A stretch of 64,000 bases of DNA from a virus (taxonomy: Duplodnaviria; Heunggongvirae; Uroviricota; Caudoviricetes), in IMG/VR virus record IMGVR_UViG_3300044712_002337, positions 82,564 to 146,563 of that record, one strand, 5' to 3'. Under the pieces are notes generated by a model. That model did not search any database. It saw nothing but the letters and a program-made list of their open reading frames with translations, and was not told the origin of the DNA. A program made the position numbers and the translations under genes. Shown here in pieces: positions 17,226-64,000 of the stretch (positions within the stretch are counted from its first letter, which is position 1; every line of letters begins with the position of its first letter).

Positions 17226-17495
17226 GTGTCACCCGACCTGAAGCGCCGCCTGTCCGCCGCCGTCGGCGGCGTCATCGAGGCGAACGAGGCGGCCCGCGCC
17301 GCCCACAACCGGGCGGCCGACGCCCGGGCCTGGCTGGAGCAGACGTTCGGCGACTGGACGGGGAAGGTGGTGCTGGAGCACAACGGGAAGCAGATTCTGG
17401 TCACCCGCACGAGGGACGAGGCCCGCCTCGCCCGCTGGTCTTGGGAGGAGATAGAGTCAACCACCCCACGGCTAAAGCCGGGGGCTTGCGGCTGA
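17226..17495 (+). CDS. hypothetical protein (3' end overlaps tnpB copy 2 terminus)
   Basis: GTG preceded by CCCGCGAGGGCCCCGAGCC leader variant; last ~24 nt overlap convergent tnpB. Confidence 0.35.
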   Translation: MSPDLKRRLSAAVGGVIEANEAARAAHNRAADARAWLEQTFGDWTGKVVLEHNGKQILVTRTRDEARLARWSWEEIESTTPRLKPGACG

Positions 17496-18590
17496 CGGGG
17501 CGGACCCCGTCGCCACCATAGGCCGGTTGGCGGCGGCCCGATGAGCGATGTTGAGGGCGGCGTTGTGGTCGGCATTGGCCGTGCGGGAGCACGACTTACA
17601 CCGAAACCGAACGCCCTTGCGGTTGGTTTTGGCGACGTGCCCGCAGGCGGCACACGTCTGCGAGGTGTAGGCGGGCTCGACCGCCCACACCGGCACCCCG
17701 GCGTGAATAGCCTTGTAGGTCACGAACGCCCGCAGTCGAGCGAACGACCAGGAGGAAAAAGCGTGGCGAACCGTTTTCTGAACCCGCCGCCCCCGCCGCC
17801 GAATCCCGGTCAGGTGTTCGAGGGCGATGGCGTGGTTCAGTGCCTTGGCCTTGCTCACAATCTGCGAACTGACGACGTGGTCGACGCCCTTGCGGAAGCG
17901 GGCCTCCCGCCCGCCGTTCTTCTTCAACCGCCGCTTGGCCGACTTCGTGCCGACCGCCTGGAGGGCCGCCCGGCGGCGGGCGTACCGCCCGACGACGGTT
18001 TTGTACTGGTCGTGCCCGAGGGCGGTGCCGTCCGACAGGGTGGCGAGGGTGCGGACGCCGAGGTCCACCCCGAGAACGCCGGTCGTCGGCCGCTCCGGTC
18101 CCGCGGGAACGTCGACGGCCACCGCCAGCCACCAGGACGGGCCTTCCCGGATGAGTTTCGCCTCCCGCCAGCCGTGGGCGAGCAGGGCCGCCTGGTAGTC
18201 GCCGCAGGCGAACGGGAGTTTAATCCGGCCGGCGGTCGCTGTGGTGATTCCGACCTCGCCGGACTTGCGGTCGTCGGCCGGTTTCAGCTTGAACAACCGG
18301 CAGTCCACCGGGACGGCCCCGCCCGGCTTGAACACCGGGCACCGGCGGCGGTCCCGGGCGAACACAGCGGCCGCCTTGGCCACCGCCTTGACGGCCCACT
18401 GGGCGGGCAGGCCGAACCGGTCTCGCAGGGGCCGGTAGACGAGCTTCTGCAGGCGGAACCCGTTGAACTCCTTCTCCCGGAACCCGACCGCGGCCGCCTC
18501 CGACGCGGCGGCGTTCACCGCGGCGAGGGTGGCCGTCAGCAGGGCGGCCTGCTCGGGCGTCGGTCGGAGGTGGAGGCGGACGGTTTTCAC
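17472..18590 (-). CDS. tnpB: TnpB (OrfB) RNA-guided nuclease, IS200/IS605 family, copy 2
   Basis: GTG start after AGGAG; GVDLGVRT, ALEHL, CAACGH...CKSCS zinc finger, NADHNAALNI; long ORF extension upstream rejected. Confidence 0.85.
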   Translation of the reverse strand: MKTVRLHLRPTPEQAALLTATLAAVNAAASEAAAVGFREKEFNGFRLQKLVYRPLRDRFGLPAQWAVKAVAKAAAVFARDRRRCPVFKPGGAVPVDCRLFKLKPADDRKSGEVGITTATAGRIKLPFACGDYQAALLAHGWREAKLIREGPSWWLAVAVDVPAGPERPTTGVLGVDLGVRTLATLSDGTALGHDQYKTVVGRYARRRAALQAVGTKSAKRRLKKNGGREARFRKGVDHVVSSQIVSKAKALNHAIALEHLTGIRRRGRRVQKTVRHAFSSWSFARLRAFVTYKAIHAGVPVWAVEPAYTSQTCAACGHVAKTNRKGVRFRCKSCSRTANADHNAALNIAHRAAANRPMVATGSAPSAASPRL

Positions 18591-18707
18591 TCCTAGTGAG
18601 TACCCCGAACGCCGCCGCGGGCGGTGGGGATTTTTTAAAATCGTCCGGCCGGCTCCGCCGGCACCCCGGGGCTGAAGCCCGGGGCCTCCGGACGAGGAGG
18701 AATTTCG

Positions 18708-19265
18708 GTGACCGAAATCTACGTGTCGACCGACGTCGAGACCGACGGGCCCATCCCGGGGCCGCACTCGATGCTCAGCTTCGGGTCCGCCGCGTTCACC
18801 GCCGAAGGCCGGATGCTGTCCACCTTCGAGGCCAACCTGGAGACCCTGCCGGGCGCGTCCGGGCACCCGGACACCATGCGGTGGTGGGAGACCCAGCCCG
18901 AGGCGTGGGCGGCCCACCGGACGGACTTGCGGACGCCCCTCGAAGCCATGACGAGGTACTCGGCCTGGCTGAAGGGGCTGCCCGGGCTGCCGGTGTTCGT
19001 GGGCTACCCGGCCGGGTTCGACTTCACCTGGATATATCATTATCTAATTATGTTTACGAATCACTCCCCGTTCTCCTTCTCGGCGGTGGACATCAAGACG
19101 TTCGCCATGTGCTTGTTGAAGAAGGACTACCGCCAGTCGACCAAGAAGAACATGCCGAAGCGGTGGTTCGGGGGCGTGAAACACTCCCACAAGGCACTGG
19201 AAGACGCCGTCGGCCAGGGGGAGCTGTTCATCAACATGCTGAAGGAAAGCCGAGGCGAGAAGTGA
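18708..19265 (+). CDS. DnaQ-like (DEDDh) 3'-5' exonuclease
   Basis: Exo [10 protein letters not shown] and Exo III H-x4-D (HKALEDA) motifs. Confidence 0.6.
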
Positions 19266-20259: not shown

Positions 20260-20544
20260 GTGACATCCCACTGCCTAGACCTGTTGGCCGAGACGGTCCT
20301 CACCCTGCCCCAGGCGGCGGCGGTGCTGGCGGTCGACGCCGCCACCGTCGGGCGGTACGTGCGGGCGGGCCGGCTGGAGGGGGTGCGGGTGGGCGGGCGG
20401 TGGAAGACCAGCCGGGAGGCGGTCGCCCGGTTCCTGGCCGGCACCCAGCCGCGGGCGAAAGCCGACCCGCCCGCCCGGACGCCCGCCGGCCGCCGCGGGG
20501 AGAAGGCCCTCGCCCGGCTGCGGGCGATGGGGGTGAAGGTCTAG
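20260..20544 (+). CDS. excisionase-like / AlpA-type HTH DNA-binding protein
   Basis: LTLPQAAAVLAVDAATVGRYVRAGRLEGVRVGGRWKTSREAV winged-helix pattern; divergent from integrase. Confidence 0.5.
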   Translation: MTSHCLDLLAETVLTLPQAAAVLAVDAATVGRYVRAGRLEGVRVGGRWKTSREAVARFLAGTQPRAKADPPARTPAGRRGEKALARLRAMGVKV

Positions 20545-21758
20545 CCCGACTTCTTGGCGGCGTCGACCGCGTCCTTGTCCACCGGCCGCGAATACCGCTC
20601 GGTCGTCCGGGCGTTCTTGTGCCCGAGCAGCTTCTGGGCGACGTCCAGCCCGTGCTCGCCCCGGAACTCCACCCCGGCGGCGTGCCGCAGCTGGTTGCTG
20701 GTCCACTTCGCCACCCCCGCCCGCCCGCACGCCCGCTCGATGGCCTGGTTGTACGTCGCCGTCGTGTACCACAGCCCGACCCGGGCGGACGGCCCCTTCT
20801 CCGCCTGCTGCCGCTCCTTCACCTGGGACGGGTACCTCGGCCGCCGCTCGGCCCGCCGCCGGGCGAGCTGCTCGCGGGCGGAGGTGCGGGGGCGGAACAC
20901 CGGCAGGTCGGGCTCGGCCCAGTCCAGGTACGGGGCGAGCACCGCCTGGGCGGCGGGGCCGACGTACACCTCCCGCGTCTCCCCGGCGTGCGCCCGCTTG
21001 TGCCGGTCCGGCCGGAACACCCACACCGCGGCCCCGCGGTCAATCAGGCCGGGCGTCAGCCCGCACACGTCCTGCGGGCGGCACCCGGTCAGCCGGTGGA
21101 ACCGCACCATGGCGGCGACGGTCGGGGTGAGGTGCGGGAGGGTGGCCTCCACGTCCGCGTCGCCCACCGCCTCGACCGTCCGCTGCTCGGGGGCCCTCGT
21201 CTTCCCCTTCTTCAGCCCGTCCACGCTCCGCAGCTGGAACCACTTGCCGGCGGGCACCAGCTCCATCTTCTCCCCCCACCGGAACACCGCCCGCACCCGC
21301 CGCGCCTGGGCGTTCACGTGCTCGCGGGTCCACCCCTTGGCCACCATCGCGTCCCGCACGCGGATGAGCGCCCGCGGCCCGAACTCGGCGGCCGGGTCGA
21401 GCGGGCAGACGGTGCACAGCACCCCGACGGCCGCCTTGTAGTACTTCGTCTCCGACGCCGAGTACCCGACCAGCTCGGCCGCCAGGAACGCCTCGGCCAG
21501 TTCGGCCACGCACACCCCGCCCTTGGGCGGCCGCGCCGGCCCGGGCGGGGCGGGGGGCGGGGCGGGCGGGGCGTCGGGGTGCCCGGCCCGCCACTCGGCC
21601 AGGAACGCCTGGTACGCCGCCTTCGACTCCTCGCTCCCGTACCGGCCCAGGTACACCCGCACCCGGTCCCCCTTCTGTTCGTCGTACACGAAAACGAACG
21701 CCCGGTCGGTGGCGCGGTGGCGGCGGTAGGTGGGGACGACGTTGCGGGGTCGGGACAC
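20541..21758 (-). CDS. int: tyrosine recombinase / phage integrase
   Basis: C-terminal catalytic region LRHAAGVEFRGEHGLDVAQKLLGHKNARTTERYS (R..H-x-x-R..Y). Confidence 0.85.
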   Translation of the reverse strand: MSRPRNVVPTYRRHRATDRAFVFVYDEQKGDRVRVYLGRYGSEESKAAYQAFLAEWRAGHPDAPPAPPPAPPGPARPPKGGVCVAELAEAFLAAELVGYSASETKYYKAAVGVLCTVCPLDPAAEFGPRALIRVRDAMVAKGWTREHVNAQARRVRAVFRWGEKMELVPAGKWFQLRSVDGLKKGKTRAPEQRTVEAVGDADVEATLPHLTPTVAAMVRFHRLTGCRPQDVCGLTPGLIDRGAAVWVFRPDRHKRAHAGETREVYVGPAAQAVLAPYLDWAEPDLPVFRPRTSAREQLARRRAERRPRYPSQVKERQQAEKGPSARVGLWYTTATYNQAIERACGRAGVAKWTSNQLRHAAGVEFRGEHGLDVAQKLLGHKNARTTERYSRPVDKDAVDAAKKSG

Positions 21759-26395: not shown

Positions 26396-27640
26396 ACGAC
26401 CGCCGGCTTCAGCCGGCGGCTTTGTGCCTCAGCGGTCTGGGCACTGATATGGGTGGTTTACGGCACCCCTAGCCGCGATGTTGCGCGCGGCGTTCTGGTC
26501 GGCGTGGGCGGCGTGCCCGCACGACGTACAGGAGAAGCGGTCTTGGGACTTCCGGCTCGCCTTGTCGATGTGCCCGCAGGCGAAGCACGTCCGCGACGTG
26601 TTGCGGGGGTCCACCGCCACCAGCGGCACCCCGGCCAACTTCGCCTTGTAGGTGAGGCAGTGCCGGAGGTGGTGGAACGCCCAGTTGGACAGCCGGGAGC
26701 GGTGCCGCGTGCGAACCGTTTTCTCCGTCCTGGTGCGGACGCCGTTGAGGTCTTCGACGGCGATACCCACGCCCAGACGGAGTGCCTTGGCGACAACCGT
26801 TTTGGAGATGCGGTGGTTCTCCCCCTTTTGGTAACGGGACTGCTTACCGGCGAGCGCCTTCAGCCGCCGCTTGGCGGACTTGGTTCCCCGGCGTTGGAAG
26901 CTTTGACGGGCCTTCAGGTGCCGCTTGCGGTGGCGTTCCACGTCCGCCCCGGTGTGCCGCTCGCCCTCGGAATCGGTGAGGACGTTGGCGATGCCCAAAT
27001 CCACCCCGAGGAAGGCCGACACCTCGGCGGCGGGCGGTTCGGGCACGTCGGCGGTGCAGTACAGGAAGAACTTCCCCCCGCGGTACACCAAGTCGGCCTG
27101 CCCCTTGAGGGCGTGCAGCGTGCCCGTGAAGTAGTCGCCGGCCACGTAGGGCACCAAAATCCGCCCGCCCATCGTGAGCAGGCTCACCCGGTCGACGCCC
27201 TTGAAGGAGAACGTCCGCTGGTCGTAGGTGACAGCCCCCAGGGGTTTGAACACCGGGCACTGGGTCTTGTCGCGGGCGAAGCACTCGACCGCCTTGCCGA
27301 TGGCGCGGACGGCGGTCTGCGAGGACACGCCGAACGTGTCCCGGAGGGCGCGGTAGCAGAGCTTGTGGATGGACGGCTGGGAGAACACCCGGTTCTCAAA
27401 CCCCACCCGCGCCGCTTCGGTGGCGGCGGCGTTGAAGGCCCGCATGTACGCGAGCAGGGCTGGCGCTTGCCCGGCGTCCGGCAGCAGTTTGATTTGCACG
27501 ACGAGTTTCACGACGGCATTTTAGGATGCCGTTTGTCCGTAATCAACCCCGGAGAGCGGCTTACCTCTGTCGCCTGAAGGCGACAGTCTCACGCCGCGAA
27601 TTTATGAGAGCGGGCTGTCGCCCGCATGTTAAAAAGGAAA
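26396..27640 (-). mobile_element. IS200/IS605-family element carrying tnpB copy 3; boundaries approximate
   Basis: 5' subterminal hairpins CTGTCGCCttcaGGCGACAG and GGCATcctaaaATGCC; 3' hairpin GCCGCCGGCTgaaGCCGGCGG. Confidence 0.5.
26429..27511 (-). CDS. tnpB: TnpB (OrfB) RNA-guided nuclease, IS200/IS605 family, copy 3
   Basis: GVDLGIANV, AVEDL, CFACGH...CTSCG zinc finger, HADQNAARNI. Confidence 0.85.
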   Translation of the reverse strand: MKLVVQIKLLPDAGQAPALLAYMRAFNAAATEAARVGFENRVFSQPSIHKLCYRALRDTFGVSSQTAVRAIGKAVECFARDKTQCPVFKPLGAVTYDQRTFSFKGVDRVSLLTMGGRILVPYVAGDYFTGTLHALKGQADLVYRGGKFFLYCTADVPEPPAAEVSAFLGVDLGIANVLTDSEGERHTGADVERHRKRHLKARQSFQRRGTKSAKRRLKALAGKQSRYQKGENHRISKTVVAKALRLGVGIAVEDLNGVRTRTEKTVRTRHRSRLSNWAFHHLRHCLTYKAKLAGVPLVAVDPRNTSRTCFACGHIDKASRKSQDRFSCTSCGHAAHADQNAARNIAARGAVNHPYQCPDR

Positions 27641-33911: not shown

Positions 33912-34219
33912 TTGGTTTTCCCCAGGAGGGACTTCTCCACCCACCCGTACCCGACCCCGTCCAGGTGGGCCCAGGCGAAGTTCGGGCCGGGGGCGGTGCC
34001 GACGGGCGTGGCCCCCAGGGCGGACTTCGGCGGGGCGAAGGTGGCGGCCAACCGCTGAACCGGCCGCGGGGCGACCGCGCCGAACTGGACCGACCCGCCG
34101 AGCGGGCCGGACAGGGTCACCCCGAACCCGGGCCGGCACTGGCCGCCGGGGCACTGGGCCTGAGCGGCCGCCACTCCGAGGGCCGACGTGAACAAGGCGA
34201 GTGCCGTCTTCGTGACCAT
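33908..34219 (-). CDS. hypothetical small secreted Cys-containing protein
   Basis: signal-peptide-like N-terminus MVTKTALALFTSALGVAAAQA. Confidence 0.4.
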   Translation of the reverse strand: MVTKTALALFTSALGVAAAQAQCPGGQCRPGFGVTLSGPLGGSVQFGAVAPRPVQRLAATFAPPKSALGATPVGTAPGPNFAWAHLDGVGYGWVEKSLLGKTK

Positions 34220-34244
34220 GAACTTCGTCCTTTTTGAAGGGAAC

Positions 34245-34431
34245 GACCCCGAGGGGTCAGTGCGGCGGGATGGGGTCGAACCACCGCGCCCGGCTTGCTT
34301 AGGGCCGTTGCTCTTGCGGCACACTTTCTCGGAAGCGGTATGGCGCCATTCTCGCTCCCGTTCCGGTGAACCGCCCCGGTCCCGCCCGTCTGCAAAACGG
34401 TCAAGGTAACCGGCCTGCTGAGCTACCGCCG
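34245..34431 (-). ncRNA. tRNA-like structured RNA (perfect 7-bp acceptor GCGGCGG/CCGCCGC, T-arm GGTGG-TTCGACC-CCATC, TGC anticodon-like hairpin) with ~100-nt extra region
   Basis: acceptor/T-arm/U8-A9-GCTC elements found by eye; not a canonical tRNA. Confidence 0.3.
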
Positions 34432-34486
34432 CATGGAGGCCCGGGCGTGAGAACCACCGACGGGGGCCGAAGCCCCGCCCAGGCCA

Positions 34487-34553
34487 GTCGGAGGTAAGGG
34501 AGTCGAACACCTTCCACCCGGGTTATGAGCCCGGGGCGAGCACCGGCCCACCT
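34487..34553 (-). ncRNA. tRNA-like element with CAT anticodon stem-loop (CCGGG-CTCATAA-CCCGG), non-canonical D/T arms
   Basis: acceptor GGAGGTG/TACCTCC with G-U; anticodon loop canonical; T-arm fails. Confidence 0.25.
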
Positions 34554-34575
34554 CCGCCGTCACGTCAACACCCGC

Positions 34576-34603
34576 ATATTAACTGTTTTTATAAAGTAGT
34601 CAA
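34576..34603 (-). promoter_or_regulatory. sigma-70-like promoter driving the tRNA-like RNAs / downstream operon
   Basis: minus strand TTGACT -N16- TAATAT. Confidence 0.5.
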
Positions 34604-34690
34604 CACGACTTCGTCGTGATTTTAAAAGGGGTGACTCACACGGGCGATTTTCCTCTTTTAACAGGCGGGCCCCGCCCGCGGGGTGTCCCC
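34604..34690. repeat. composite cassette: GATTTTAAAAGGGGTGACTCA ... GATTTTCCTCTTTTAACAG + hairpins GCGGGCcccGCCCGC / GCGGGGtgtCCCCGC after dnaE-C stop Confidence 0.5.
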
Positions 34691-34691
34691 G

Positions 34692-37190
34692 CTAAATCTG
34701 CCAAAACTCCGTCGCCACGAACCCGTCCCCCCGCCGGGACGGCTCCAGCGCCACCTGCAGCACGTTGCCGTCCCGCAGGAGGGCGCGGTGTTTCTCATAA
34801 TCGTCAGGAAAACAGACGATTTCGTTGAGCGAGCCCGACTCGTCGCCCAGGGTGAGCCAGGCCATGTCCCGCCCCTTCTTGGTGCGGAACGCCCGCGAGC
34901 TTTTCAGGACGGCGCACACGCGGACCTTCTCCTTGCGGCCGTCGAGCAGGTCCTTGATGGGGGCGGTGCGGCCGGACACGTCGGCCCCGGCCAGCTTGGT
35001 GTAGGTGACGGGCACCCCCAGGGCCTTCTCCTCCAGCTCGGCAATCACCCGGGGCGTGTCCGCCTCGCTCGTGGGCGGGTGGTCCAGGAGGTAGGCTTCG
35101 TCCAGGAGGTCCTGAGTCGTGTTTTTGTTGGCGGCGGCGCCGCCCTCCTTCTTCGGCCTGGCAGCCGAACGAATTAGCTCCGCCAGGCTATCGGCTTCAC
35201 CCGCGTGGCTGACCAGCCACGCATGGACGGTCTTCTTGGACTTCAGCCGCGCCACGCACTTGGCCTCGTTCGCCTGACGTAACCGCGGCACCGAAAAGTG
35301 GGCGAACGCCCCCGCGTAGGCGAGCCCCTCCATCACTTTAACGGGCACGGTCGTGCCGACCTTCAGCAGGAAGTGGGTCCAGGTCCAGTCGGACAAAGGC
35401 TTTCCGCTCGACTCCTCTTCGGCTTGGATGGCCTCGACCATCTTTTCCACGTGCCCGTCCCCCACCCCGCTCACGTCGCACAGCCCGAACACGGCCGCGT
35501 CCCCGTCCAGGTCCACGCGGGCCGAGCGGGTGCGGACGTCGGGCGACCGAACCTTAATGTTCGCGGAGCGGGCGTCGTTCACCAGGAGGGACGCCTCCTC
35601 CTCGCACCCCTTCTTCTTCCCCTTGAGGAAGGCCAGGGCGAGCCAGTTGGCGTAGAAGGCGAGGGGGAAGTGGGCCTTCAGGTAGGCGGTCTTCACCGCC
35701 TTACACCCGTACGAATAAGCGTGGCTGTTGCAGACCACCAGCCCGTCGTTCACCACGAAGTTGTGGTTCGGGGCGTCCATAGTCACATCGTACGTCTCGC
35801 ACTCGCCGTCCGGCTCCACCGACACCACCCGCGTTTCCACCCGCGGGGCTCCCTTCTCCCCCCGCTTCACCCGCCCGCAGGCGTACTCCTTCTTCTTGTG
35901 GCAGGAGACGCACAGGAGTTGCAGGTTCTCGGGCTCATTGTTCGAGCGGTCGCCGTCGATGTGGTCCATCTCCAGGCGGCCCTCGGTCTTGCCGCACAGT
36001 TCGCACACCTTCGCCTTGGTCGCCTTCACCGCCTTAAACGAGGTGAACCCGCCGCCGGTGTACGCGTAGTTGTTCTCGCCGAACGCCCCGTTCACGAACC
36101 GGCCTTCCACGTACGGTCGGGTCTCGTTCGTGTACTTGCTGAAGTTGTACCGCTTCCCGTTCCCCTTCTCGTACTCCCCGCGGCGGAACACGACGACCTC
36201 CATCCCGAGCAACACCCGCCGGGCGATTTCAGCCACCGTCAGTTCGCCATCGGTGGTCGGCACCTTATGGTTGCCCGTCAGGCGGACTGACTGACCATCG
36301 GAGGTCGTGAGCCGGAACACCGGGCGGTAGCCGGCCGGCTGGATGTCGCGGATGAGGTTCGGGCGGACCCGCCCGTCCTCGCACATGGACAGCCCCTGGC
36401 CGTAGTGGCCAAGCCGCATCCACTTCCGGCGGAGCACGTCGTGCCCGTGTTTTTGGGCGTACCGGATGTCGTTCCGGATGCGGTACATGTGGCCGACCGT
36501 GTAGCCCACCCCCTTCACCTGCCCGCCCGTGCCGTACCGGACAATAATCGTATCCTCTGACGCGCACTTATTAAATGAGTACCGTGCCGACTCCTGAATC
36601 CAGTCGAACAACTGGACGGCGAGTTCGTAGGGGACGGCCCCGTACTCTTTGGCCCGCTCCAGGAACTTAAGTCGAGTGTCTGCCATGAGCTGCGCATCCT
36701 TCTTCCCGGCTGCCTTCCGTAGGAGCTGCGCCTCGGCTTTAGAAAAACCCGCAACCACTTCCGACAACTTGCAAATCTGTTCTTGAAAGACGACGACGTT
36801 GTAAGTCTTTGCCAGTACTTCATCTACGACGGGGTGTAGAGACTCCGTCTGCTCGTCCCCGTTCTTGCGGAGGACGTAGTGCTCCGTCATCGACACTCCA
36901 TTACTATCACGAGCTTTTAAACAACCGGGCCGGAGCAGACTAACGAGCGCACAGATGTGTTCCTCGTTCTCCGGCTTCAACATCTTGGACCACTTCTGGC
37001 CGAGGTACTCCTCCAGCTGGAACACCCCCTTGGTCTGCCCGTGCGCGAACAGGTTCGCCACCGCCGAGCAGAACGGGGCCTTGCGGATGTCCACGTCCAG
37101 GGCCGGCAGCCCGCCCGGGTAGGCCGGCGGCCCCACGACCGGCCAGGAGCACCCGCATTTTTTAAAGTGGTAAATTTCGTTCGTAGGCAC
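34692..37190 (-). CDS. dnaE: DNA polymerase III alpha (DnaE) C-terminal half with inserted HNH intein
   Basis: GVFQLE, VVFQEQ, FNK|C...intein...N|SHAYSYGCKAVKTAYLKAHFP; GTG start. Confidence 0.8.
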   Translation of the reverse strand: MPTNEIYHFKKCGCSWPVVGPPAYPGGLPALDVDIRKAPFCSAVANLFAHGQTKGVFQLEEYLGQKWSKMLKPENEEHICALVSLLRPGCLKARDSNGVSMTEHYVLRKNGDEQTESLHPVVDEVLAKTYNVVVFQEQICKLSEVVAGFSKAEAQLLRKAAGKKDAQLMADTRLKFLERAKEYGAVPYELAVQLFDWIQESARYSFNKCASEDTIIVRYGTGGQVKGVGYTVGHMYRIRNDIRYAQKHGHDVLRRKWMRLGHYGQGLSMCEDGRVRPNLIRDIQPAGYRPVFRLTTSDGQSVRLTGNHKVPTTDGELTVAEIARRVLLGMEVVVFRRGEYEKGNGKRYNFSKYTNETRPYVEGRFVNGAFGENNYAYTGGGFTSFKAVKATKAKVCELCGKTEGRLEMDHIDGDRSNNEPENLQLLCVSCHKKKEYACGRVKRGEKGAPRVETRVVSVEPDGECETYDVTMDAPNHNFVVNDGLVVCNSHAYSYGCKAVKTAYLKAHFPLAFYANWLALAFLKGKKKGCEEEASLLVNDARSANIKVRSPDVRTRSARVDLDGDAAVFGLCDVSGVGDGHVEKMVEAIQAEEESSGKPLSDWTWTHFLLKVGTTVPVKVMEGLAYAGAFAHFSVPRLRQANEAKCVARLKSKKTVHAWLVSHAGEADSLAELIRSAARPKKEGGAAANKNTTQDLLDEAYLLDHPPTSEADTPRVIAELEEKALGVPVTYTKLAGADVSGRTAPIKDLLDGRKEKVRVCAVLKSSRAFRTKKGRDMAWLTLGDESGSLNEIVCFPDDYEKHRALLRDGNVLQVALEPSRRGDGFVATEFWQI
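35727..36566 (-). mobile_element. intein (Hint + HNH endonuclease) in DnaE at the FNK/SHA site
   Basis: block A CASEDTIIV, block B TGNH, HNH HIDGDRSNNEPENLQLLCVSCH, C-terminal NHNFVVNDGLVVCN followed by Ser. Confidence 0.7.
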
Positions 37191-37191
37191 G

Positions 37192-37569
37192 TCAGCGGCC
37201 CTCCCCCGGCGGGGCCGCCGGCATCCGCCGGGGCACCGGGCGGGTGGCCAGCTGCAGCACGTGCTGCATGTCCTCGTCCCGCCCGCCGCACAGGTGCGGG
37301 GTCATGTGCACCCACTCCCACGAGTCCTTGTGCTTGTCGAACCGGCCGGACGCGTCGATGACCCGGCACACCACCCGGGGCAGGCTGTGCCGGGCGTACA
37401 GCCGGGACCAGGCGGTGTGACACCGCTCGGCCACCTCCGGGGACGGGCTTTGCATCCCGTCCCACAACAGAGGGGCGGCCAGCCAGCCGGCCCGTTCGAG
37501 CCGGGCCTGGTGGGCGTCCCGCACCCGGTACTCGCGGTCGCCCAGGGGGTCACACCCCCCAAGTGCCAT
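37192..37569 (-). CDS. hypothetical protein
   Basis: internal ATG; stop adjacent to dnaE-C GTG. Confidence 0.35.
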   Translation of the reverse strand: MALGGCDPLGDREYRVRDAHQARLERAGWLAAPLLWDGMQSPSPEVAERCHTAWSRLYARHSLPRVVCRVIDASGRFDKHKDSWEWVHMTPHLCGGRDEDMQHVLQLATRPVPRRMPAAPPGEGR

Positions 37570-38209
37570 AGTCAGAAAAATCCACATGCTGGCCGGACTC
37601 CCTGAATTTCGGCGCCATCTGCACGGCGAGCCGCCGGTAGAAGTTCATGAATTTGCACAACACCCACGCCGTGTGCCGCACGTCCGTCATCCCCCGGTGG
37701 GCCCCGTCCTTCGGGATGCCGAAGTAGTCGCGGACGGCGTCCATCCCGATGCTGTCCGTCTGGTTGGTCTGGCCGAACCAGCGGAACAGGTCGTCCAGGG
37801 TGTCCAGCACCACCCGCTTGTTGAACAGGGTGGACTCCCCGGCCTCGTTCACGTACCCAAACCGCTCGGCGTACCGGTCGAGGATGGGCAGGTCAAATCC
37901 CCGAACGTTCTGACCGGCCGGAAAGGGCGCCGTGGAGGGGGACGCGGTCTTGCCGCCGAACCGGCGGACGTGCTCGTAGAACCGCGGGAACACCGTTTTG
38001 ATGGACGGGGCTTTTTCCAAATCCGCAATCGCAATCTTGTTCTTCGCCATCGCCCCGGCTTCCAGGGCGGAGAAGTCCTCCGGCCGGACCAGGGTCTCGA
38101 ACTCGCTCCCCGGAATCGGCGCCCACTTCTTCGGGTCGATGACGAGGGCGGCAATCTCTAAAATCTGGGTGGTCTCCTGCTTCGCGCTGGAGGTCTCCAA
38201 GTCGACCAC
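37550..38209 (-). CDS. DnaQ-like (DEDDh) 3'-5' exonuclease
   Basis: Exo I LEIAALVID, Exo III HRGMTDVRHTAWV. Confidence 0.7.
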   Translation of the reverse strand: MVDLETSSAKQETTQILEIAALVIDPKKWAPIPGSEFETLVRPEDFSALEAGAMAKNKIAIADLEKAPSIKTVFPRFYEHVRRFGGKTASPSTAPFPAGQNVRGFDLPILDRYAERFGYVNEAGESTLFNKRVVLDTLDDLFRWFGQTNQTDSIGMDAVRDYFGIPKDGAHRGMTDVRHTAWVLCKFMNFYRRLAVQMAPKFRESGQHVDFSDYGTWGV

Positions 38210-38284
38210 GATGACGTAGTTGAGGTTGATAACTTCACCCTTTCGAAATGCGGGCGGAGCCCGGGGGGCCGTGGGGCGCCCCCG

Positions 38285-38557
38285 CTAGTCGGCCAGGGCC
38301 AGCACCACCGTGCCGTCGTCCAGCACCTCGGCGGTGAACCCCTCCCCGTCGGCCGCGTCGAGCAGCTCGGGCTCCAGGTCGAGCGGCCCCACCTTGAGCA
38401 GGATGGCGACGAGCAGCCGGCGGGAGTGGCGGGTGCGGTCGGCGTTCGCCGCCGCCTGGTCGGCCACCACCCGGCGGAGGGCGGCCGCCTCGGCGGCCGG
38501 GTCGGCGGGGGCGGGCGGGGCTTCCCGGGCGAACAGCGTCTTGAGTCTGGCGAGCAT
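38285..38557 (-). CDS. hypothetical protein
   Basis: 90-aa ORF after cassette. Confidence 0.4.
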   Translation of the reverse strand: MLARLKTLFAREAPPAPADPAAEAAALRRVVADQAAANADRTRHSRRLLVAILLKVGPLDLEPELLDAADGEGFTAEVLDDGTVVLALAD

Positions 38558-38585
38558 GGGAGGCTGGCTCGGGGGTTCGGGGCCG

Positions 38586-38622
38586 CGGGGGCGGGCCCCC
38601 GCATGTTAAAAGGGGAAAGTCA
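38586..38622. repeat. cassette: hairpin GCGGGGGCggGCCCCCGC + CATGTTAAAAGGGGAAAGTCA Confidence 0.55.
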
Positions 38623-39177
38623 GGCGGGCAGGTACCGCTTCACCTCCGCCAGCACGTCGACGACGCAGAACGTGCCGTCCGGGCGGAGGTCTCCCCGCCG
38701 ACAATTCCAGGGACGTGGAACCAACACCGCACACCCGCCCCGCTTGCGGAAGGCGTCCACGTTGTCGTCGTGGTCGTCGACCAGGATGTTGTCCGGGCCG
38801 GCGGCGGCCGCCTTGCCCCCGCCCAGGAGGGCCCGGCGGGCGAACTGCGGCCCGACCTCCCGGCGGAGCCAGTCCCGCTTACCGGCTTCACACCCGTCGG
38901 TGGCGCACGGGCTGGACAGGGCGGTGACGTTCTCCTCCCCGACCAGATGGACCAGCCCGTGGAAGAGGGCCTTCCCCTCCCGGGTCCAGGGCAGGTTCGC
39001 CCAGAACTCCCGCCCCATCGGGGCCCAGAAGTCGGCCTGCCGGCCCTGGAACCCGATTTGCTCGAAGAAGTCCCAGCGGACGTCGAGGTACGGGACGGAC
39101 GCCCCGTGCAGGGCGAAGGCCGCCTCGGTGAACGAACACTTGACCCCGTCCATGTCGAGCAGGATGTGCTTGTGCAT
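38620..39177 (-). CDS. HAD-family 5'(3')-deoxyribonucleotidase-like
   Basis: motif I LLDMDGV, motif IV ILVDDHDDNV. Confidence 0.6.
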   Translation of the reverse strand: MHKHILLDMDGVKCSFTEAAFALHGASVPYLDVRWDFFEQIGFQGRQADFWAPMGREFWANLPWTREGKALFHGLVHLVGEENVTALSSPCATDGCEAGKRDWLRREVGPQFARRALLGGGKAAAAGPDNILVDDHDDNVDAFRKRGGCAVLVPRPWNCRRGDLRPDGTFCVVDVLAEVKRYLPA

Positions 39178-39215
39178 GGGGGTATTCTAGCCGAGGATTA
39201 GTTTTTGTAAAGTAG

Positions 39216-39602
39216 TCATTTCTGATGGGAAACCCACTCCCACATCGCGTCCCGGGCGGCCTGGTAATAGTCTTTCTTCACCCGCTCGTACCGCCCGCAC
39301 GCCGGCCACGACTCCAGCATGGCGTCGACCATCCGCAGCCACGTCGAAACCTGCCCCACGGTCAAGTCGTGGGCGAACTCCAGCTTGTGCAGGCGGCTGT
39401 CCAGCCAGCCGTCGTACCCGCCGTCGCACTCGAACCAGGAAACGCCCGCGCCGAGCAGCCGGTCGACGGACTCCAGGTACGAATGACGATTCACCCCGTC
39501 GGCCTGCCACTCCGCCCACGGCCGGGTCAGCACCCGCGGGTCGATATCTTCTCGCCCCGGCCACCAACACCCCGTCGGGGCCGGGACGCGGATGTCAATC
39601 AT
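39216..39602 (-). CDS. hypothetical protein
   Basis: 128-aa Trp-rich ORF. Confidence 0.45.
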   Translation of the reverse strand: MIDIRVPAPTGCWWPGREDIDPRVLTRPWAEWQADGVNRHSYLESVDRLLGAGVSWFECDGGYDGWLDSRLHKLEFAHDLTVGQVSTWLRMVDAMLESWPACGRYERVKKDYYQAARDAMWEWVSHQK

Positions 39603-41682
39603 CTTCGTCCTCCTGGGTCTCTTCGAGCCCTTTCATCCAGCGGTAGTCGGGCACCCGGTGCGTCCGGATGGTCTCCAGACAGCCGACCAGCTTGTCCTCG
39701 ACCGCCACCCCGAGAAAGTCTAATTTAGGCACACCTAATTGTTCTAACTCAGGATAATCCATTCCGGCGATGAGTTCGCCCGCCTTGGCGTCCCACACCA
39801 GCGGGCACATCTCGGCCAGCGGGCGGGCGGAAATGACGATGCCGCTGGCGTGGGTGCCCCGCCCCCGCTTGCACCCCTCCAGCCGGGAGGCCTGGGCGAA
39901 GAGCGGGCCGAGCGGCCCCTCGAACGCCCCGTCCGGGGTGAGCTTGACGAACTCCTGGAAGTCCTCCGGGTGGTGCGTGAGCACGTACTTGATGATGCTC
40001 GCCTCGCCCGTCTCCTCCCGCATCTCCTGCAGCTTGTCGGCAATCTGGTCCTTGCCGGGGAGCCGCTTGGTGATTTCCTTCCGCTCCTTGTAGTCCCCCC
40101 ACCCGTGGGCCGAGAACACGGCGGTCAGGGCGCTCGCCCCGTGCAGGCTCTGGAAGGTGGCGATGTGGGCCACCCGGTCGCTCCCGTACTTCTTGCGGAC
40201 GTACCGGATGACCGCCTCCCGCCGGCCGACCGGGAAGTCCATGTCGATGTCCGGCAGCATGGCCGGCTTCCCGGGCTGGTTACGGGAGTCGTCGTAGAAC
40301 CGCTCGAACGACAGGTCGGCCTTGATGGGGTCGGTGTCGTGGATGTCGAGCAAGTACCCAACAATCGTACCGGCGGCCGAGCCACGCCCTTCGACGGCCC
40401 TCGCCCCGATGGAGATGGCGTACCGGCAGACGTCGGCGGCGATGAGGAAGTAGCCGTGCAGGTTCGCCTTGTCGTACACGGCGTACTCGTGTTCGAGCTG
40501 GGCGCGGTACCTGTCCTGCTCGTGAGCGGGGACCACCCCCGCCACCTTCCGCTCCCACCCCTCCTTGCACAGCGCCCGCAGGTGCTCGCCCTCGGCCTCG
40601 CCGCCCGGCGTGGGGAAGCCCGGCAGTTCGGGCGGGCCGGACAGGCTGTAGCTCTCGCACATGTCCGCGAAGTGGAGGGAGGCCTCCAGCTCGCCCGGCT
40701 CGTGGCGGGCGGCCATGTGTTCGACGGACGGGATGTGGAACTGGCTCGACCGGAAGAAGCCGCCGAGCGTCACGTCTTCGCCGTTGTCGGCCTGCTGTTG
40801 GACCTTGGCCAAAGTCGTCTTGAACGCGTTGCAGAGGAGCACCCGCTGGTCCGGCGCGTCCTCCGGGCGGGCCATGTGGGCGTCCGGGGTGGCCACCACC
40901 CGCGTCCCCGTCTCCTTCCCCGCCCACCGCATGATGTTGGCCAGCACCTGGGCGGCGGGCGAGTTCAGCCTCCCCTCGTCGTCCACGTCGTACAGTTGGA
41001 CTTCGAGCCCGACGTTCTCCTTGCCGAACAGGTCGTGGTACCGGCCAATCTCGCGGACCAAATCGACCTTCAAGGCCGACCAGTCCTTCACGTAAGACTT
41101 GGCCCGCTCGTACGTGGCCGCCTTGTAAGCCGCCTTCGGGTCGGCGAAGACGAAGTCGGCCAGGGTGCTGCCGATGTGCCCGGTGAGGGCAATCAGGTTG
41201 CCGCCCGCGAAGCCGCCCAGTCTTTCTAAATCAAGCCTTGGCTTGTAGTAGAAGTGGTCCGGGTGGTTCGAGGCCGAGGTGGCCTTCAGGAGAGACTGCC
41301 ACCCGGCGCGGTTCTTGGCGAGGATGACCAGGTGGGACAGGCCGCGGTCGTCCTTGTCCTTGACGGTCGCGTCCTTGCGACAGACGTAAAACTCATTTCC
41401 CAGGATGAGCTTCTTCTTCGACGGCTCGTACGCCGGGCACGCCTCCCCGGCAATCAGACACCGCCCCTTCCCCCCGTCCGCGTGCGAGCTCTTCGGCCGC
41501 CCGCACACGCCGCACGCGTCCGCCATCGCCCGCTGGTACGCCGGGGCCCCGCTGACGCTGCCGTGCTCCGTAATCGCCGCGCCGGGCAGGCCGCACTTCA
41601 CCACCCGGGCGGCCATGTCCTGGGGTGATGTAAGTCCGTCTAATAAACTATGTTGACCGTGACAATGAAGAGGATAATACAT
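39595..41682 (-). CDS. dnaE: DNA polymerase III alpha (DnaE) N-terminal half (PHP + palm)
   Basis: PHP LHCHGQHSLLDG...ITEHG, GRGSAAGTIVGYLLDI, catalytic PDIDMDF, HASGIVIS, KLDFLGV; ends with acidic tail and stop before fingers domain. Confidence 0.85.
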   Translation of the reverse strand: MYYPLHCHGQHSLLDGLTSPQDMAARVVKCGLPGAAITEHGSVSGAPAYQRAMADACGVCGRPKSSHADGGKGRCLIAGEACPAYEPSKKKLILGNEFYVCRKDATVKDKDDRGLSHLVILAKNRAGWQSLLKATSASNHPDHFYYKPRLDLERLGGFAGGNLIALTGHIGSTLADFVFADPKAAYKAATYERAKSYVKDWSALKVDLVREIGRYHDLFGKENVGLEVQLYDVDDEGRLNSPAAQVLANIMRWAGKETGTRVVATPDAHMARPEDAPDQRVLLCNAFKTTLAKVQQQADNGEDVTLGGFFRSSQFHIPSVEHMAARHEPGELEASLHFADMCESYSLSGPPELPGFPTPGGEAEGEHLRALCKEGWERKVAGVVPAHEQDRYRAQLEHEYAVYDKANLHGYFLIAADVCRYAISIGARAVEGRGSAAGTIVGYLLDIHDTDPIKADLSFERFYDDSRNQPGKPAMLPDIDMDFPVGRREAVIRYVRKKYGSDRVAHIATFQSLHGASALTAVFSAHGWGDYKERKEITKRLPGKDQIADKLQEMREETGEASIIKYVLTHHPEDFQEFVKLTPDGAFEGPLGPLFAQASRLEGCKRGRGTHASGIVISARPLAEMCPLVWDAKAGELIAGMDYPELEQLGVPKLDFLGVAVEDKLVGCLETIRTHRVPDYRWMKGLEETQEDEDD

Positions 41683-41694
41683 CGTCAGAATGAC

Positions 41695-42009
41695 TCACGA
41701 GTAGACGGTGACGGCCGGGGCGTACGCCGGGGCGGAAACGGTCAGCGCCGCCGGCGGCCGCTCGACCACCGGGGCAGGGTCCACCCACAGGGCGTTCGAC
41801 TCGGCCGGGATGGTGAGGAGGGTCCCGCGCTGGCGGGTTAGCGAGCCCAGGACGGAAGCGGGAAGCCCGCCGAAACCCGGCGCTATCGCGGCCGGGACGA
41901 AATCGCCCGCCACCCGCAAGCGCCCGGCCGAGACGGCCGGGGCCGACGGCTTCAGCCCGCAGGCGGCCGCCGCCGCCCCGACCGCCGAGAAGAACTTCCG
42001 CCGAATCAT
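41695..42009 (-). CDS. hypothetical small secreted protein
   Basis: MIRRKFFSAVGAAAAACGL signal/lipobox-like. Confidence 0.35.
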   Translation of the reverse strand: MIRRKFFSAVGAAAAACGLKPSAPAVSAGRLRVAGDFVPAAIAPGFGGLPASVLGSLTRQRGTLLTIPAESNALWVDPAPVVERPPAALTVSAPAYAPAVTVYS

Positions 42010-42020
42010 GCTCGCTCCGC

Positions 42021-42542
42021 TCACGAGGGGAGAACGGGAGCGTCGACCTCCCGCGTGTCGCCGGCGCCCGAGATGGTGTTCGTCTTCTTCCGCGCGGTCA
42101 GCTTGTCCAGGTTCCCCTGGGCGACGTCGGCGGCGTTCAGCCCCATGTCCCCCATCACCTTGTTGGCGTACCACATTTGGCCGTCCCCGATTTCTTTGGA
42201 GATGGGGGTGATGTCCATCCCGAAGAGGAGGCCGCGGAACTTGCTGCACCACGCCTTGTCCGCCTCGCCGAACCCGCCCTGGTCGCGGACCCGCTTCTTC
42301 TCGGCCTCGGCCAGTTTCCCGACGCGGGTGAACCCCTCCAAGGCGCCCTTGAACATGATGGCGGTGAGCGACCCCCCGTCCGGGATTTGGGCCGCGACGG
42401 CGAGCAGCTTTTCGCACAGTTCGCCCGTCTCGCCCATGAGGCCGAGCATGGGGTACACCACCGCCGCCTCGGTCGGGTACATGGCGAAGGCCGCCGCCTG
42501 GGTCTGGTAGTCGGTGAAGGTCAGGTCGTTCGCTTCGTTCAC
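42021..42542 (-). CDS. MazG-family nucleoside triphosphate pyrophosphohydrolase
   Basis: LGLMGETGELCEKL EExxE-type motif. Confidence 0.6.
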   Translation of the reverse strand: MNEANDLTFTDYQTQAAAFAMYPTEAAVVYPMLGLMGETGELCEKLLAVAAQIPDGGSLTAIMFKGALEGFTRVGKLAEAEKKRVRDQGGFGEADKAWCSKFRGLLFGMDITPISKEIGDGQMWYANKVMGDMGLNAADVAQGNLDKLTARKKTNTISGAGDTREVDAPVLPS

Positions 42543-61654: not shown

Positions 61655-62724
61655 GTGTGCTTCCTGGCGAACAGGGGGCCGAGGGGATTGGGGGTGTACG
61701 AAGAAGGAGAAGTCCGGTACCGCTCGTACTCGCCGCGGAGGGCGGCCGCGGCGGCGTCCAGCTCGTCATCCGCGCATTCGTACCAGCCGGCTTCCCCGGT
61801 GTACGGGATGAACGGCGGCTCCCGCATCGGGGCGTGCCGCGACGCCTTCAGCATGAACGCCCCGGCCTCGGGCCCGTACTCGTGCCCCGAGTTGTCGCTC
61901 ATGAAAACGCGGCCGCCCACGGCGGCCACTTCGGCCGCCTCCAGGTTCCACCCCTCCGCCCGGGCGGGGAACAGGCCGACCTGGGCCCGCCTCATGAGCG
62001 AGGCGAGTTCGCCCTGCGTTTGGAACCGGGTCGCGGACACGTGGACCTTTCCGGCCCGGCCCATCGGCGACCGCGTCGCCCACTTCCCCCACTGCCGCGA
62101 GACGTCCGGGCCGTCGAACCCGGGGGCCTTGAGCCAGTTGTGCGAGTGCATCACCAGCAAGGCGTCGTCGTCCGGCCGGAACGCCCGGTTGAAAATGTCG
62201 ACCACCTGGTCGCACCCCTTGCGGACCTCCCACTTGCCGGCAAACAGGACGACGAAAGTGGAGTCCGCGACCCCGGGGAGAGCGGCCGGGGTGACGCCGG
62301 GGTGAAAGATGGCTGTGTCTACACCGGGCCGGACCACGGCGACCGGGACGGTCACCCCGCTGTCCCGCAGCACCTTCTCCGCCCACCGGGTGGGGACCGC
62401 CACCCCGTCCAGCGTGTTGAGACCGCGGGCGCGGTCCCCGGGGAGTCGGTCGAGTTCGAAGAAGGTGTAGAGGACCCGGGGCCCGTTGAGGCCCCGGAGG
62501 GGGCTCAGGTCGAAGTCGTGCCACACCAGCAGGGTGGGGTCTTCGGGGTCCGGCTCCGGCAATTGCCCCAGCAGGTGTTCGAACTCGTCCGCGTACTCCC
62601 CCGACAGGTCCGGCTCGTGGACGCACCGGAACGCGAAGGGTTCCCCGAGCTGGGCGAGGCCGCGGAGGACGCCCTTCCCCGTCTGGCCGAATCCTGTGGA
62701 ATTTAAACAGGTCACCAAATTCAC
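61570..62724 (-). CDS. glycosyltransferase family 1 (GT4-like)
   Basis: EGWNLEAAEVAAVGGRV; GTGA overlap with upstream stop. Confidence 0.6.
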   Translation of the reverse strand: MNLVTCLNSTGFGQTGKGVLRGLAQLGEPFAFRCVHEPDLSGEYADEFEHLLGQLPEPDPEDPTLLVWHDFDLSPLRGLNGPRVLYTFFELDRLPGDRARGLNTLDGVAVPTRWAEKVLRDSGVTVPVAVVRPGVDTAIFHPGVTPAALPGVADSTFVVLFAGKWEVRKGCDQVVDIFNRAFRPDDDALLVMHSHNWLKAPGFDGPDVSRQWGKWATRSPMGRAGKVHVSATRFQTQGELASLMRRAQVGLFPARAEGWNLEAAEVAAVGGRVFMSDNSGHEYGPEAGAFMLKASRHAPMREPPFIPYTGEAGWYECADDELDAAAAALRGEYERYRTSPSSYTPNPLGPLFARKHTWLKTASELREFARNPKAGSSATSPTAS

Positions 62725-63797: not shown

Positions 63798-63821
63798 AGG
63801 GCTTATAAAGTAGAAATTATT

Positions 63822-64000
63822 CAGCACGGCTTGGGGGGCTCCACCCGGATTTGGACGTGGGTGCCGGCCGGGCCACCCGTCACCTGGTCGTACTCCCACG
63901 TCAGCCGCGGGTCGCCGTCGTCCAGGTCCAGCTTCTCGGCGAGCCGGTCGCGGACGGCCTTGAACCCGCCCGCTAAATTGTCACTATCAAGCGAACGTCC
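63822..64000 (-). CDS. hypothetical protein (5' partial, continues beyond window)
   Basis: open frame to window edge, TGA at 63822. Confidence 0.3.

Follow-up and report, generated by a model that had tools for sequence, protein, structure and literature searches.

A DnaE-type polymerase gene split near the palm-finger junction, with an exonuclease gene in the break, in a clade of uncultured phages

Replication enzymes encoded in pieces are known from several systems. Cyanobacterial DnaE is joined through the Ssp and Npu split inteins (Wu, Hu and Liu 1998, in the account that PMC2677866 gives of it), and "fractured genes", among them three metagenomic DnaE loci, combine a split intein with a free-standing homing endonuclease between the parts (Dassa et al. 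2009, PMC2677866). T4-like phages carry a split gp43 free of inteins, and in Aeh1 NrdA is split by a homing endonuclease (both as cited in PMC2677866), while group 2.2 jumbo phages encode a split, PHP-less "minimal Pol III alpha" (Iyer et al. 2021, PMC7824862). Here we describe another arrangement, found in a 64,000-nucleotide stretch of a Caudoviricetes genome (positions 82,564 to 146,563 of IMG/VR record IMGVR_UViG_3300044712_002337; hereafter the window), in which DnaE, the alpha subunit of DNA polymerase III (Pol III), is encoded by two genes, an N-half and a C-half, with five genes between them. Surveys of C-family polymerases and of viral replication proteins are silent on this arrangement (PMC3919608, PMC12926913, PMC4889955), and we did not find it described in the full-text literature that we searched, of which the coverage is incomplete and an earlier description elsewhere is possible.

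Both open reading frames (ORFs) are confirmed on the minus strand at the coordinates listed in Table 1, and the Pfam domains agree with the initial annotation, which had taken them for the N- and C-terminal parts of DnaE and proposed profile alignments as a check. The N-half carries PHP (amino acids [aa] 5-229) and the complete DNA_pol3_alpha profile (aa 366-658, profile positions 1-260 of 260), and the C-half carries DNA_pol3_finger (aa 43-182, profile positions 31-164 of 166), HHH_6 (aa 544-636) and OB (aa 756-823). The usual, though not strictly defining, arrangement with all domains on one chain is absent, as the first chain stops after aa 695 and a separate start lies 2.4 kb downstream. 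Aligned in the Protein Data Bank (PDB) to the alpha subunits of Taq, M. tuberculosis and E. coli, the N-half has the features of a DnaE-type C-family polymerase, with PHP followed by a palm with three catalytic Asp and a thumb, and the C-half has the finger domain, the HhH/beta-binding domain and the OB fold of this type. The NCBIfam equivalogs of bacterial DnaE (e.g. PRK05673, cut-off 1002) are not reached by either protein (300 bits for the N-half, 225 bits for the C-half), and from their sequences we class both as divergent, phage-type halves that fall below the bacterial DnaE equivalog cut-off.

When aligned to unsplit homologues, the two halves adjoin within a residue. Residue 603 of M. 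tuberculosis DnaE1 (5lew) is the aligned position of both N-half residue 677 and C-half residue 30, and in the alignment to E. coli alpha N-half residue 676 corresponds to 576 and C-half residue 45 to 597. Against PRK05673, the N-half stops at model position 579 and the C-half picks up at 596, and in Streptomyces phage RedBear the tblastn matches of the two halves meet at 40941 and 40931, 10 nt apart, inside one annotated DnaE gene. The break lies in a variable loop (E. coli alpha ~577-596) past the first helix after the strand that carries the third catalytic Asp (KLD655FLG); the C-half lacks positions 1-30 of the Pfam finger profile, and it is the N-half that contributes the first finger helix. 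The break had been placed cleanly in the palm-fingers linker; it is indeed near the palm/finger junction, but by alignment it is located one helix inside the finger domain and not at the exact boundary. Similarly, the C-half begins 54 residues ahead of GVFQLE and not 21 as first counted, with the homologous stretch starting at about residue 30.

Catalytic D478 and D480 (PDIDMDF) and D655 (KLDFLG) are conserved in 100% of the clade described below, the candidate metal ligands of PHP (H6, H8, D15, H40, E97, H117, H169, D267 and H269, the last two falling slightly beyond the domain span) are kept in 95-100%, and the finger motifs GVFQLE, RPG, YQEQ, RKxxGKK and FNKSH in 97-100%. The AlphaFold2 (AF2) model of the N-half (predicted local distance difference test [pLDDT] 92.3) ends in a terminal helix, residues 660-674, and a disordered acidic tail from residue 683. 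An intein-less homologue of the C-half (P0133, 48% identical) was modelled with pLDDT 92.7, and this model can be superposed on the C-terminal halves of the Taq, E. coli and M. tuberculosis alpha subunits, the last of these (DnaE1, 7pu7) being the best Foldseek match (TMq 0.70).

To define the distribution of the split, we scanned IMG/VR, which gave 558 related stretches, and fetched the best 80 together with others from public assemblies; we also searched a collection of 5.8 billion proteins and took the best 120 homologues for each half. The best 120 homologues of the N-half are all 578-773 aa long and contain PHP and DNA_pol3_alpha only, and the best 120 of the C-half are 503-955 aa long, none of them with PHP or DNA_pol3_alpha. 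Among the 85 loci that have the end of the N-half, 76 have the exonuclease and the C-half on the same contig, and all 76 show the order N-half, exonuclease, C-half on one strand; the contig ends within 1.4 kb in the remaining 9. The split is thus repeated in the related phages where the initial annotation had suggested looking for it, and its description of a two-polypeptide Pol III alpha as unusual needs to be qualified, because this is a gene-level split but no one-off, being the rule in a large clade of uncultured phages. The distance from the end of the N-half to the start of the C-half has a median of 888 nt, which fits a small ORF plus the exonuclease, and the 2.4 kb of the window are at the larger end. 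We surveyed the break point itself in the 150 best representatives of clusters at 50% identity. By the K-x-D-x-L-G motif, 122 are N-halves and end 12-37 residues past it, with four longer exceptions; a further 23 have the length of an N-half and lack the exact motif, and five (P0272, P0284, P0286, P0287 and P0332) are unsplit at the break site. In all, ~140 of the 150 are N-halves that stop within this range.

Hundreds of contigs, drawn from many samples, share the identical break point, and the loci span a GC content of 0.29 to 0.68. Their neighbourhood is conserved, with RecA, DnaB, primase, a deoxynucleoside monophosphate (dNMP) kinase and a PD-(D/E)XK nuclease, then the DnaE cassette, SSB and glycosyltransferases, and the clade consists of large, so far uncultured phages of roughly 150-240 kb. 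No member was present among the cultured phages of our INPHARED copy, where the best protein identity is ~30% and all such matches are to unsplit genes, nor was near-identical DNA found in cultured phages; in the PB1-like phage Pa193 the polymerase is unsplit and the exonuclease gene lies upstream. A narrow alignment scan of species-representative genomes returned only 4 fragments of metagenome-assembled genomes (MAGs), all split, and no isolate or prophage. For close locus pairs in which dS is unsaturated, Nei-Gojobori dN/dS is 0.015-0.14 for the N-half, 0.017-0.18 for the exonuclease and 0.003-0.2 for the C-half, so that all three are under strong purifying selection. A further candidate for a split case, a 718-aa ORF in MT836709, proved to be an unsplit gene interrupted by a frameshift, in a record that is unverified, and was rejected. 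Two contigs with the split cassette (L095, L096) are binned in a Promethearchaeota (Asgard) MAG and are probably mis-binned phage DNA.

The exonuclease is the sole constant gene between the halves. Its residues D3, E5, D106, H171 and D176 are 98-100% conserved and constitute the Exo I (DxE), Exo II (D) and Exo III (Hx4D) motifs of a DEDDh enzyme, and the assignment is further supported by the PHROG label "DNA polymerase exonuclease subunit" and a sub-threshold NCBIfam epsilon match. The first account of the interval as five co-directional genes also holds, and PHROG and Pfam support the nucleotidase and the DnaQ exonuclease named in it. These five ORFs have a coding-type G+C content at third codon positions (GC3) of 0.88-0.98, compared with 0.86-0.98 across all seven genes of the cassette, and stop and start codons are coupled along the operon: the TGA of the N-half overlaps the ATG of the next gene (ATGATTGA), and the TGA of g131 is 1 nt ahead of the GTG of the C-half. 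The four genes other than the exonuclease are accessory and vary by genome. A nucleotidase 51% identical to that of the window is carried at the equivalent position by L102; for g128, g90 and g131 no homologues were detectable in the related loci compared, and g90 resembles, by eye only, a ~95-aa ORF just upstream of the exonuclease in L021, L024, L025 and L080. In other relatives these slots hold a uracil-DNA glycosylase or unrelated small ORFs. The idea of a universal small subunit between N-half and exonuclease was rejected, as other subclades have unrelated small ORFs, none of a known family. In most of the AT-rich relatives (L014, L016, L018 and other compact loci) the apparent gap of ~190 nt after the N-half encodes a conserved protein of ~60 aa with the motif ...F.ELxxGxxF...Y.K...RVSCCK...EV.V and no family match.

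The C-half has two features of its own, a short head and an intein. The head follows the pattern (F/Y)-x-C-G-C-x-(F/W), then 15-25 variable residues and a third conserved Cys right before a T-W-D-L helix, in which the window's own subclade lacks the Trp. Across 50 aligned homologues, C36 never varies, and C7, G8 and C9 are each conserved in at least 90%. The structure model shows the head, at high confidence, as a short beta hairpin. Unsplit relatives lack the head, as does one split subclade (L029, L035, L039, L052, L064). Such a head may bind zinc or serve in docking. The intein, an HNH insert of 280 aa, had been overlooked initially. In the alignment to Taq alpha, K815 corresponds to C-half residue 208 (...YSFNK) and S816 to residue 489 (SHAYSY...), and the exact in-frame insert between them has the marks of a contiguous intein: it starts with C1 (CASEDTII), has a TxxH block B (LTGNH(KV)), ends in ...HNFVVNDGLVVCN (C-N) with a terminal Asn, and is followed by a +1 Ser. 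Its Hint blocks B, F and G match DnaB and DnaE inteins in the PDB at E ~1e-5, and the Pfam Intein_splicing score of 25.4 is under the gathering cut-off of 35.8. The intein is likely to be active in splicing. Its site lies 4 residues from what we take to be the junction of the cyanobacterial DnaE split intein (KFAEY/CFNKS, where the slash marks the junction). C-halves of ~540 aa that have no intein are the majority among relatives, and the C-extein of the window has no tau-binding C-terminal domain.

The five unsplit representatives are close relatives, 44-53% identical to AT-rich split N-halves, and the surroundings of P0284 and P0286 show the same synteny of the replication module as the split loci. 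We built neighbour-joining (NJ) trees from concatenated N and C parts of 46 taxa with RedBear and L006 as outgroups, under amino-acid and Dayhoff-6 coding. Split and unsplit members form one group in 100% of the bootstraps, with P0286 branching first in 84-88%. Because the unsplit relatives share synteny and P0286 branches first, the split looks derived from an unsplit dnaE.

We consider it quite probable that the locus is the core replicase cassette of this phage clade, in which DnaE is made as two unjoined polypeptides that assemble non-covalently, probably with the exonuclease included. One polypeptide, alpha-N, supplies PHP, palm, thumb, the three catalytic Asp and the first finger helix, and the other, alpha-C, the remaining fingers with the motifs that bind deoxynucleoside triphosphates (dNTPs), the HhH/clamp-binding domain and the OB fold. 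The chain is cut in a variable surface loop and would not be rejoined, and alpha-N and alpha-C would assemble without a covalent link, the terminal helix of alpha-N completing the finger domain of alpha-C; this helix (aa 660-674) may be the docking element. The DEDDh exonuclease would act together with both chains, giving an alpha-N/epsilon/alpha-C core from one operon, and with a proofreader always placed within the polymerase gene, the two enzymes may be synthesised or assembled in a coupled manner. In the window, alpha-C would first have to splice out its HNH intein at FNK/SH, which would restore an essential finger motif, and the intergenic slots have taken up four accessory genes, including the dNMP nucleotidase.

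Several points weigh against this interpretation. The association of the two chains with each other and with the exonuclease is something that we infer. In the unsplit relatives the exonuclease gene is located elsewhere, 4 kb downstream of dnaE in P0284 (L097) and 1.2 kb upstream in P0286 (L098), and for this reason its interposition could be historical and not functional. No fusion of the exonuclease to either half was found in the 76 loci or among the top 150 representatives; the search for exonuclease homologues returned only 6 proteins, all standalone, and the long matches among the representatives are intein-bearing N-halves, unsplit genes and one fusion to an unrelated domain. The charge complementarity of N-tail and C-head is not different from background. 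The NJ trees nest unsplit P0284 and P0272 among the AT-rich split members in 76-88% of the bootstraps, and monophyly of all split members is recovered in only 2-28%; these trees are most simply read as a single old fission once the P0286 lineage had branched off, with a secondary re-fusion or further fissions later, and the polarity is suggestive only, because NJ is crude and the base composition varies widely. Finally, the penultimate residue of the C-half intein is Cys in place of the usual His of block G. Some active inteins lack the penultimate His, so that the Cys-Asn terminus lowers the certainty about the activity of this intein, not about its identity.

A bolder version of the two-chain assembly, which we regard as doubtful, is that the insertion of the exonuclease gene at the palm/finger junction created the split, or that the split is maintained for the exonuclease, and that the replicase is an obligate complex of three chains whose new chain ends, the finger helix donated by alpha-N and the Cys-rich head of alpha-C, dock the exonuclease by the primer terminus. 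The architecture would then be evolutionarily reversible, one lineage having re-fused its polymerase after moving the exonuclease, and the phages would have arrived at a PolC-like, integrated proofreading design from separate chains.

Among the rival explanations, the one that survives best, and which we still hold to be improbable, is that the halves function independently, for example with alpha-N working alone as a PHP nuclease or minimal polymerase and alpha-C binding DNA or the clamp as a factor in its own right. All three catalytic Asp and an apparently intact PHP site are in alpha-N, and alpha-N of P0333 has gained an unrelated C-terminal domain, which indicates that the C-terminus of alpha-N is a free end in that lineage. 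However, the dNTP-binding finger motifs of known alpha subunits (those listed above, with RKAxGKK as the fourth) are found in alpha-C at the same high conservation, the co-occurrence and order of the genes are strict in the 76 loci, selection is equally strong on both halves, and the unsplit relatives are collinear with them.

It is far less probable that the tail of the N-half and the head of the C-half form a cryptic, atypical split intein that joins the halves covalently after translation. The conserved C-G-C...C of the head, which unsplit homologues lack, could be read in this way, and split inteins do occur in the clade at another site (L069, P0287, P0332). Yet the N-tail extends only ~5-20 residues past the last extein-like helix, is unconserved and has no conserved junction Cys, Ser or Thr; the head has no terminal Asn followed by Cys, Ser or Thr; no Hint-domain match is present near the break, in agreement with the initial annotation, which had seen neither intein nor intron signatures there; the head-less subclade is still split; and on both sides of the break the sequence aligns to unsplit DnaE as an extein would.

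Slightly less probable again is the removal or bypass of the 2.4 kb interval at the level of RNA or the ribosome, through an ORF-bearing intron, trans-splicing or translational hopping. Group I introns often interrupt phage polymerase genes, and this general prevalence is all that speaks for such a mechanism, while no Rfam intron was found at E<=1 in 34000-42500, the interval holds a conserved and selected exonuclease gene on the same strand, a real stop follows the variable tail of the N-half, and the C-half is equipped with a GTG start codon of its own, a Shine-Dalgarno sequence (GGGAGG) 7 nt ahead of it and a conserved extension at the N-terminus. An artefact or dead gene (misassembly, frameshift or decaying pseudogene), for which one could cite only the imperfect public gene calls described below, is effectively refuted by the strong purifying selection, the intact catalytic residues, the GC3 of the seven genes, the same break in hundreds of contigs and an independent assembly: the Logan assembly of SRR26046407 (a 95 kb contig) repeats the same seven genes in the same order, and misassembly, which the initial annotation had named as a possible refutation, is for that reason no concern.

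Table 1. Features of the split DnaE cassette in the window (positions within the 64,000 nucleotides)
Feature	Position	Strand	Remarks
DnaE N-half, 695 aa	39595..41682	-	PHP, palm, thumb, first finger helix, all three catalytic Asp
PHP domain, aa 5-229	40996..41670	-	Pfam
Cys/His cluster C57, C60, H67, C75, C82 (CxxC...H...C...C)	41428..41514	-	insert within PHP
Palm/thumb	39709..40587	-	Pfam DNA_pol3_alpha, complete
Last N-half helix, aa 660-674	39661..39705	-	corresponds to first finger helix, E. coli alpha ~561-576
Acidic tail, aa 683-695 (EETQEDEDD), and TGA stop	39595..39636	-	
g128, 128 aa	39216..39602	-	accessory; no homologue in any related locus
5'(3')-deoxyribonucleotidase, HAD-type, 185 aa	38620..39177	-	accessory; PHROG 2643
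g90, 90 aa	38285..38557	-	accessory; no family match
DEDDh 3'-5' exonuclease (DnaQ/epsilon-like), 219 aa	37550..38209	-	Pfam RNase_T, PHROG 192
g131, 131 aa	37192..37587	-	accessory; overlaps exonuclease 3' end
DnaE C-half precursor, 832 aa	34692..37190	-	CxC...C head, fingers, HNH intein, HhH domain, OB fold
C-half N-terminal head, aa 1-41, C12-G-C14 and C41	37068..37190	-	clade-specific
Intein, 280 aa (C-half aa 209-488)	35727..36566	-	in frame, between FNK and SHA of finger motif
HNH endonuclease domain of intein, aa 396-435	35886..36005	-	Pfam HNH
C-extein after intein	34695..35726	-	finger end, HhH/beta-binding, OB
HhH/beta-binding domain	35283..35561	-	
OB fold	34722..34925	-	

The starts of both halves are misplaced in existing gene calls. 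Public calls begin the N-half at Met23 (673 aa, 22 aa short) and lose the conserved PLHxH motif of PHP (41617-41682), which the correct start, the ATG at 41682, retains according to the alignments of homologues; the Joint Genome Institute (JGI) call of the C-half is 814 aa, 18 aa short, is named "hypothetical protein" and loses the conserved C-G-C of the head (37137-37190). We prefer the longer ORFs for both halves because alignments of homologues back them. The Cys/His cluster inserted within PHP is confined to the GC-rich subclade and may be a zinc finger; the 10 closest relatives all have it unchanged, and ~97% of the AT-rich relatives lack it. The acidic tail is lineage-specific, most relatives ending 12-25 residues past K-x-D-x-L-G. 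As further variants of the N-half, P0333 has an extra domain of ~150 aa (...GGQTGADIAGL...) fused past the usual break point, and P0006, P0104 and L005 have an insertion of ~100 aa immediately ahead of the catalytic PDIDxDF motif.

Inserts occur in ~20% of the top C-half homologues and in several N-halves of ~1000-1420 aa. A second intein site in the C-half, RPG/C (...LLRPG/CVSGDTKI...VHN/CLKA), is occupied in L101 (7045-9501), L070 (7707-10046) and P0272; this HNH intein is present in the window's closest relative and in others, and the site is empty in the window (LLRPGCLKA). Between this empty site and the intein, over C-half codons ~61-210 (36567-37010), GC3 is 0.55-0.8, and it is ~0.65 over N-half codons 621-695 (39598-39820); elsewhere both DnaE genes have a GC3 of 0.75-1.0, except in the first 40 codons of the N-half (0.57). 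The low-GC3 stretches may be a gene-conversion tract from a relative of lower GC content. In L069 (9995-18847) DnaE is in three pieces, with a fractured gene at FNK/S as in Dassa et al. 2009: N-half and exonuclease are followed by 3.2 kb of other genes and then by C1-IntN, a Vsr-like free-standing endonuclease (306 aa) and IntC-C2, with the junctions ...FNK/CLDVSTVV...VVYE* for C1-IntN and ...ATSN/SHSVSY for IntC. P0287 and P0332 end in the same IntN as L069.

Outside the cassette, the window has a single tRNA gene, tRNA-Met (CAT) at 34487-34556 (-), 135 nt downstream of the C-half stop. Three paralogous transposase-like genes (PHROG 506/12300; 5992-7086 (+), 17472-19040 (-) and 26429-27511 (-)) and a tyrosine-type integrase (20541-21758 (-)) lie within 22 kb. 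At the window edge, 62721-63899 (-) is a free-standing ORF resembling a LAGLIDADG-type homing endonuclease, with two LAGLIDADG-like motifs, located in a patch of lower GC content (0.58 vs 0.69).

These results bear on how C-family polymerases can be built and on how they are counted. A replicative C-family polymerase is cut between its catalytic palm and its dNTP-binding fingers in hundreds of phage lineages, and if the halves form an active enzyme, they define a permissive split point in a family that is usually a single chain of ~1150 aa and could serve directly for studies of how a composite active site assembles and for the engineering of split polymerases. The names that pipelines give to the halves vary from "DNA polymerase-3 subunit alpha" to "hypothetical protein", and the starts are misplaced, which distorts surveys of polymerases and counts of pseudogenes in viromes. 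The clade is also rich in inteins, which occupy at least two DnaE sites and come in contiguous and split forms.

Compared with the described systems, the window resembles each in part. Like cyanobacterial DnaE, it derives Pol III alpha from two genes split in the finger region; in cyanobacteria, however, the genes are far apart and the halves carry intein fragments and are ligated into one chain, whereas in the window the break is ~190 residues further upstream and without intein parts, and the genes are adjacent with the exonuclease between them. The initial annotation was right in that the best-known split DnaE uses a trans-splicing intein at another site. The fractured genes share with the loci of this clade an environmental, phage-like origin and a DnaE in pieces with a gene between, but the break in the window has neither a split intein (no IntN or IntC) nor a free-standing homing endonuclease (no HNH, GIY-YIG, LAGLIDADG or Vsr match in g128, the nucleotidase, g90, the exonuclease or g131), and the constant gene is a DEDDh exonuclease. 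The split genes of T4-like phages (as cited in PMC2677866) are similar to the window in that an essential replication enzyme is made as two unjoined polypeptides with 1-3 kb of inserted genes between the pieces; they are confined to a few phages and are linked to homing endonucleases, whereas here a C-family polymerase is split in a whole clade at 37-58% identity and the gene in between is a probable functional partner, not a selfish one. The group 2.2 jumbo phages also have a phage C-family polymerase module as two proteins, but theirs is a minimal catalytic core, split within the nucleotidyltransferase module and encoded by distant genes, that accompanies a family B replicase; the DnaE of the window is full-length, with its cut after the palm and its two genes adjacent, and the fetched neighbourhoods of the clade loci showed no other polymerase. 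In PolC of Firmicutes the exonuclease is a domain inside PHP of one chain, and E. coli dnaQ is unlinked to dnaE. Both PolC and the E. coli Pol III core (alpha-epsilon-theta) combine, like the window, a C-family polymerase with a DEDDh proofreader, as is generally known (PMC12926913), but in the window a separate exonuclease gene is lodged in the polymerase gene at the palm/finger junction, and PHP keeps its candidate metal ligands. Split polymerase genes as such are known, and what sets this case apart is a conserved, selected, two-chain DnaE that is free of an intein at its break and has a proofreader gene in it.

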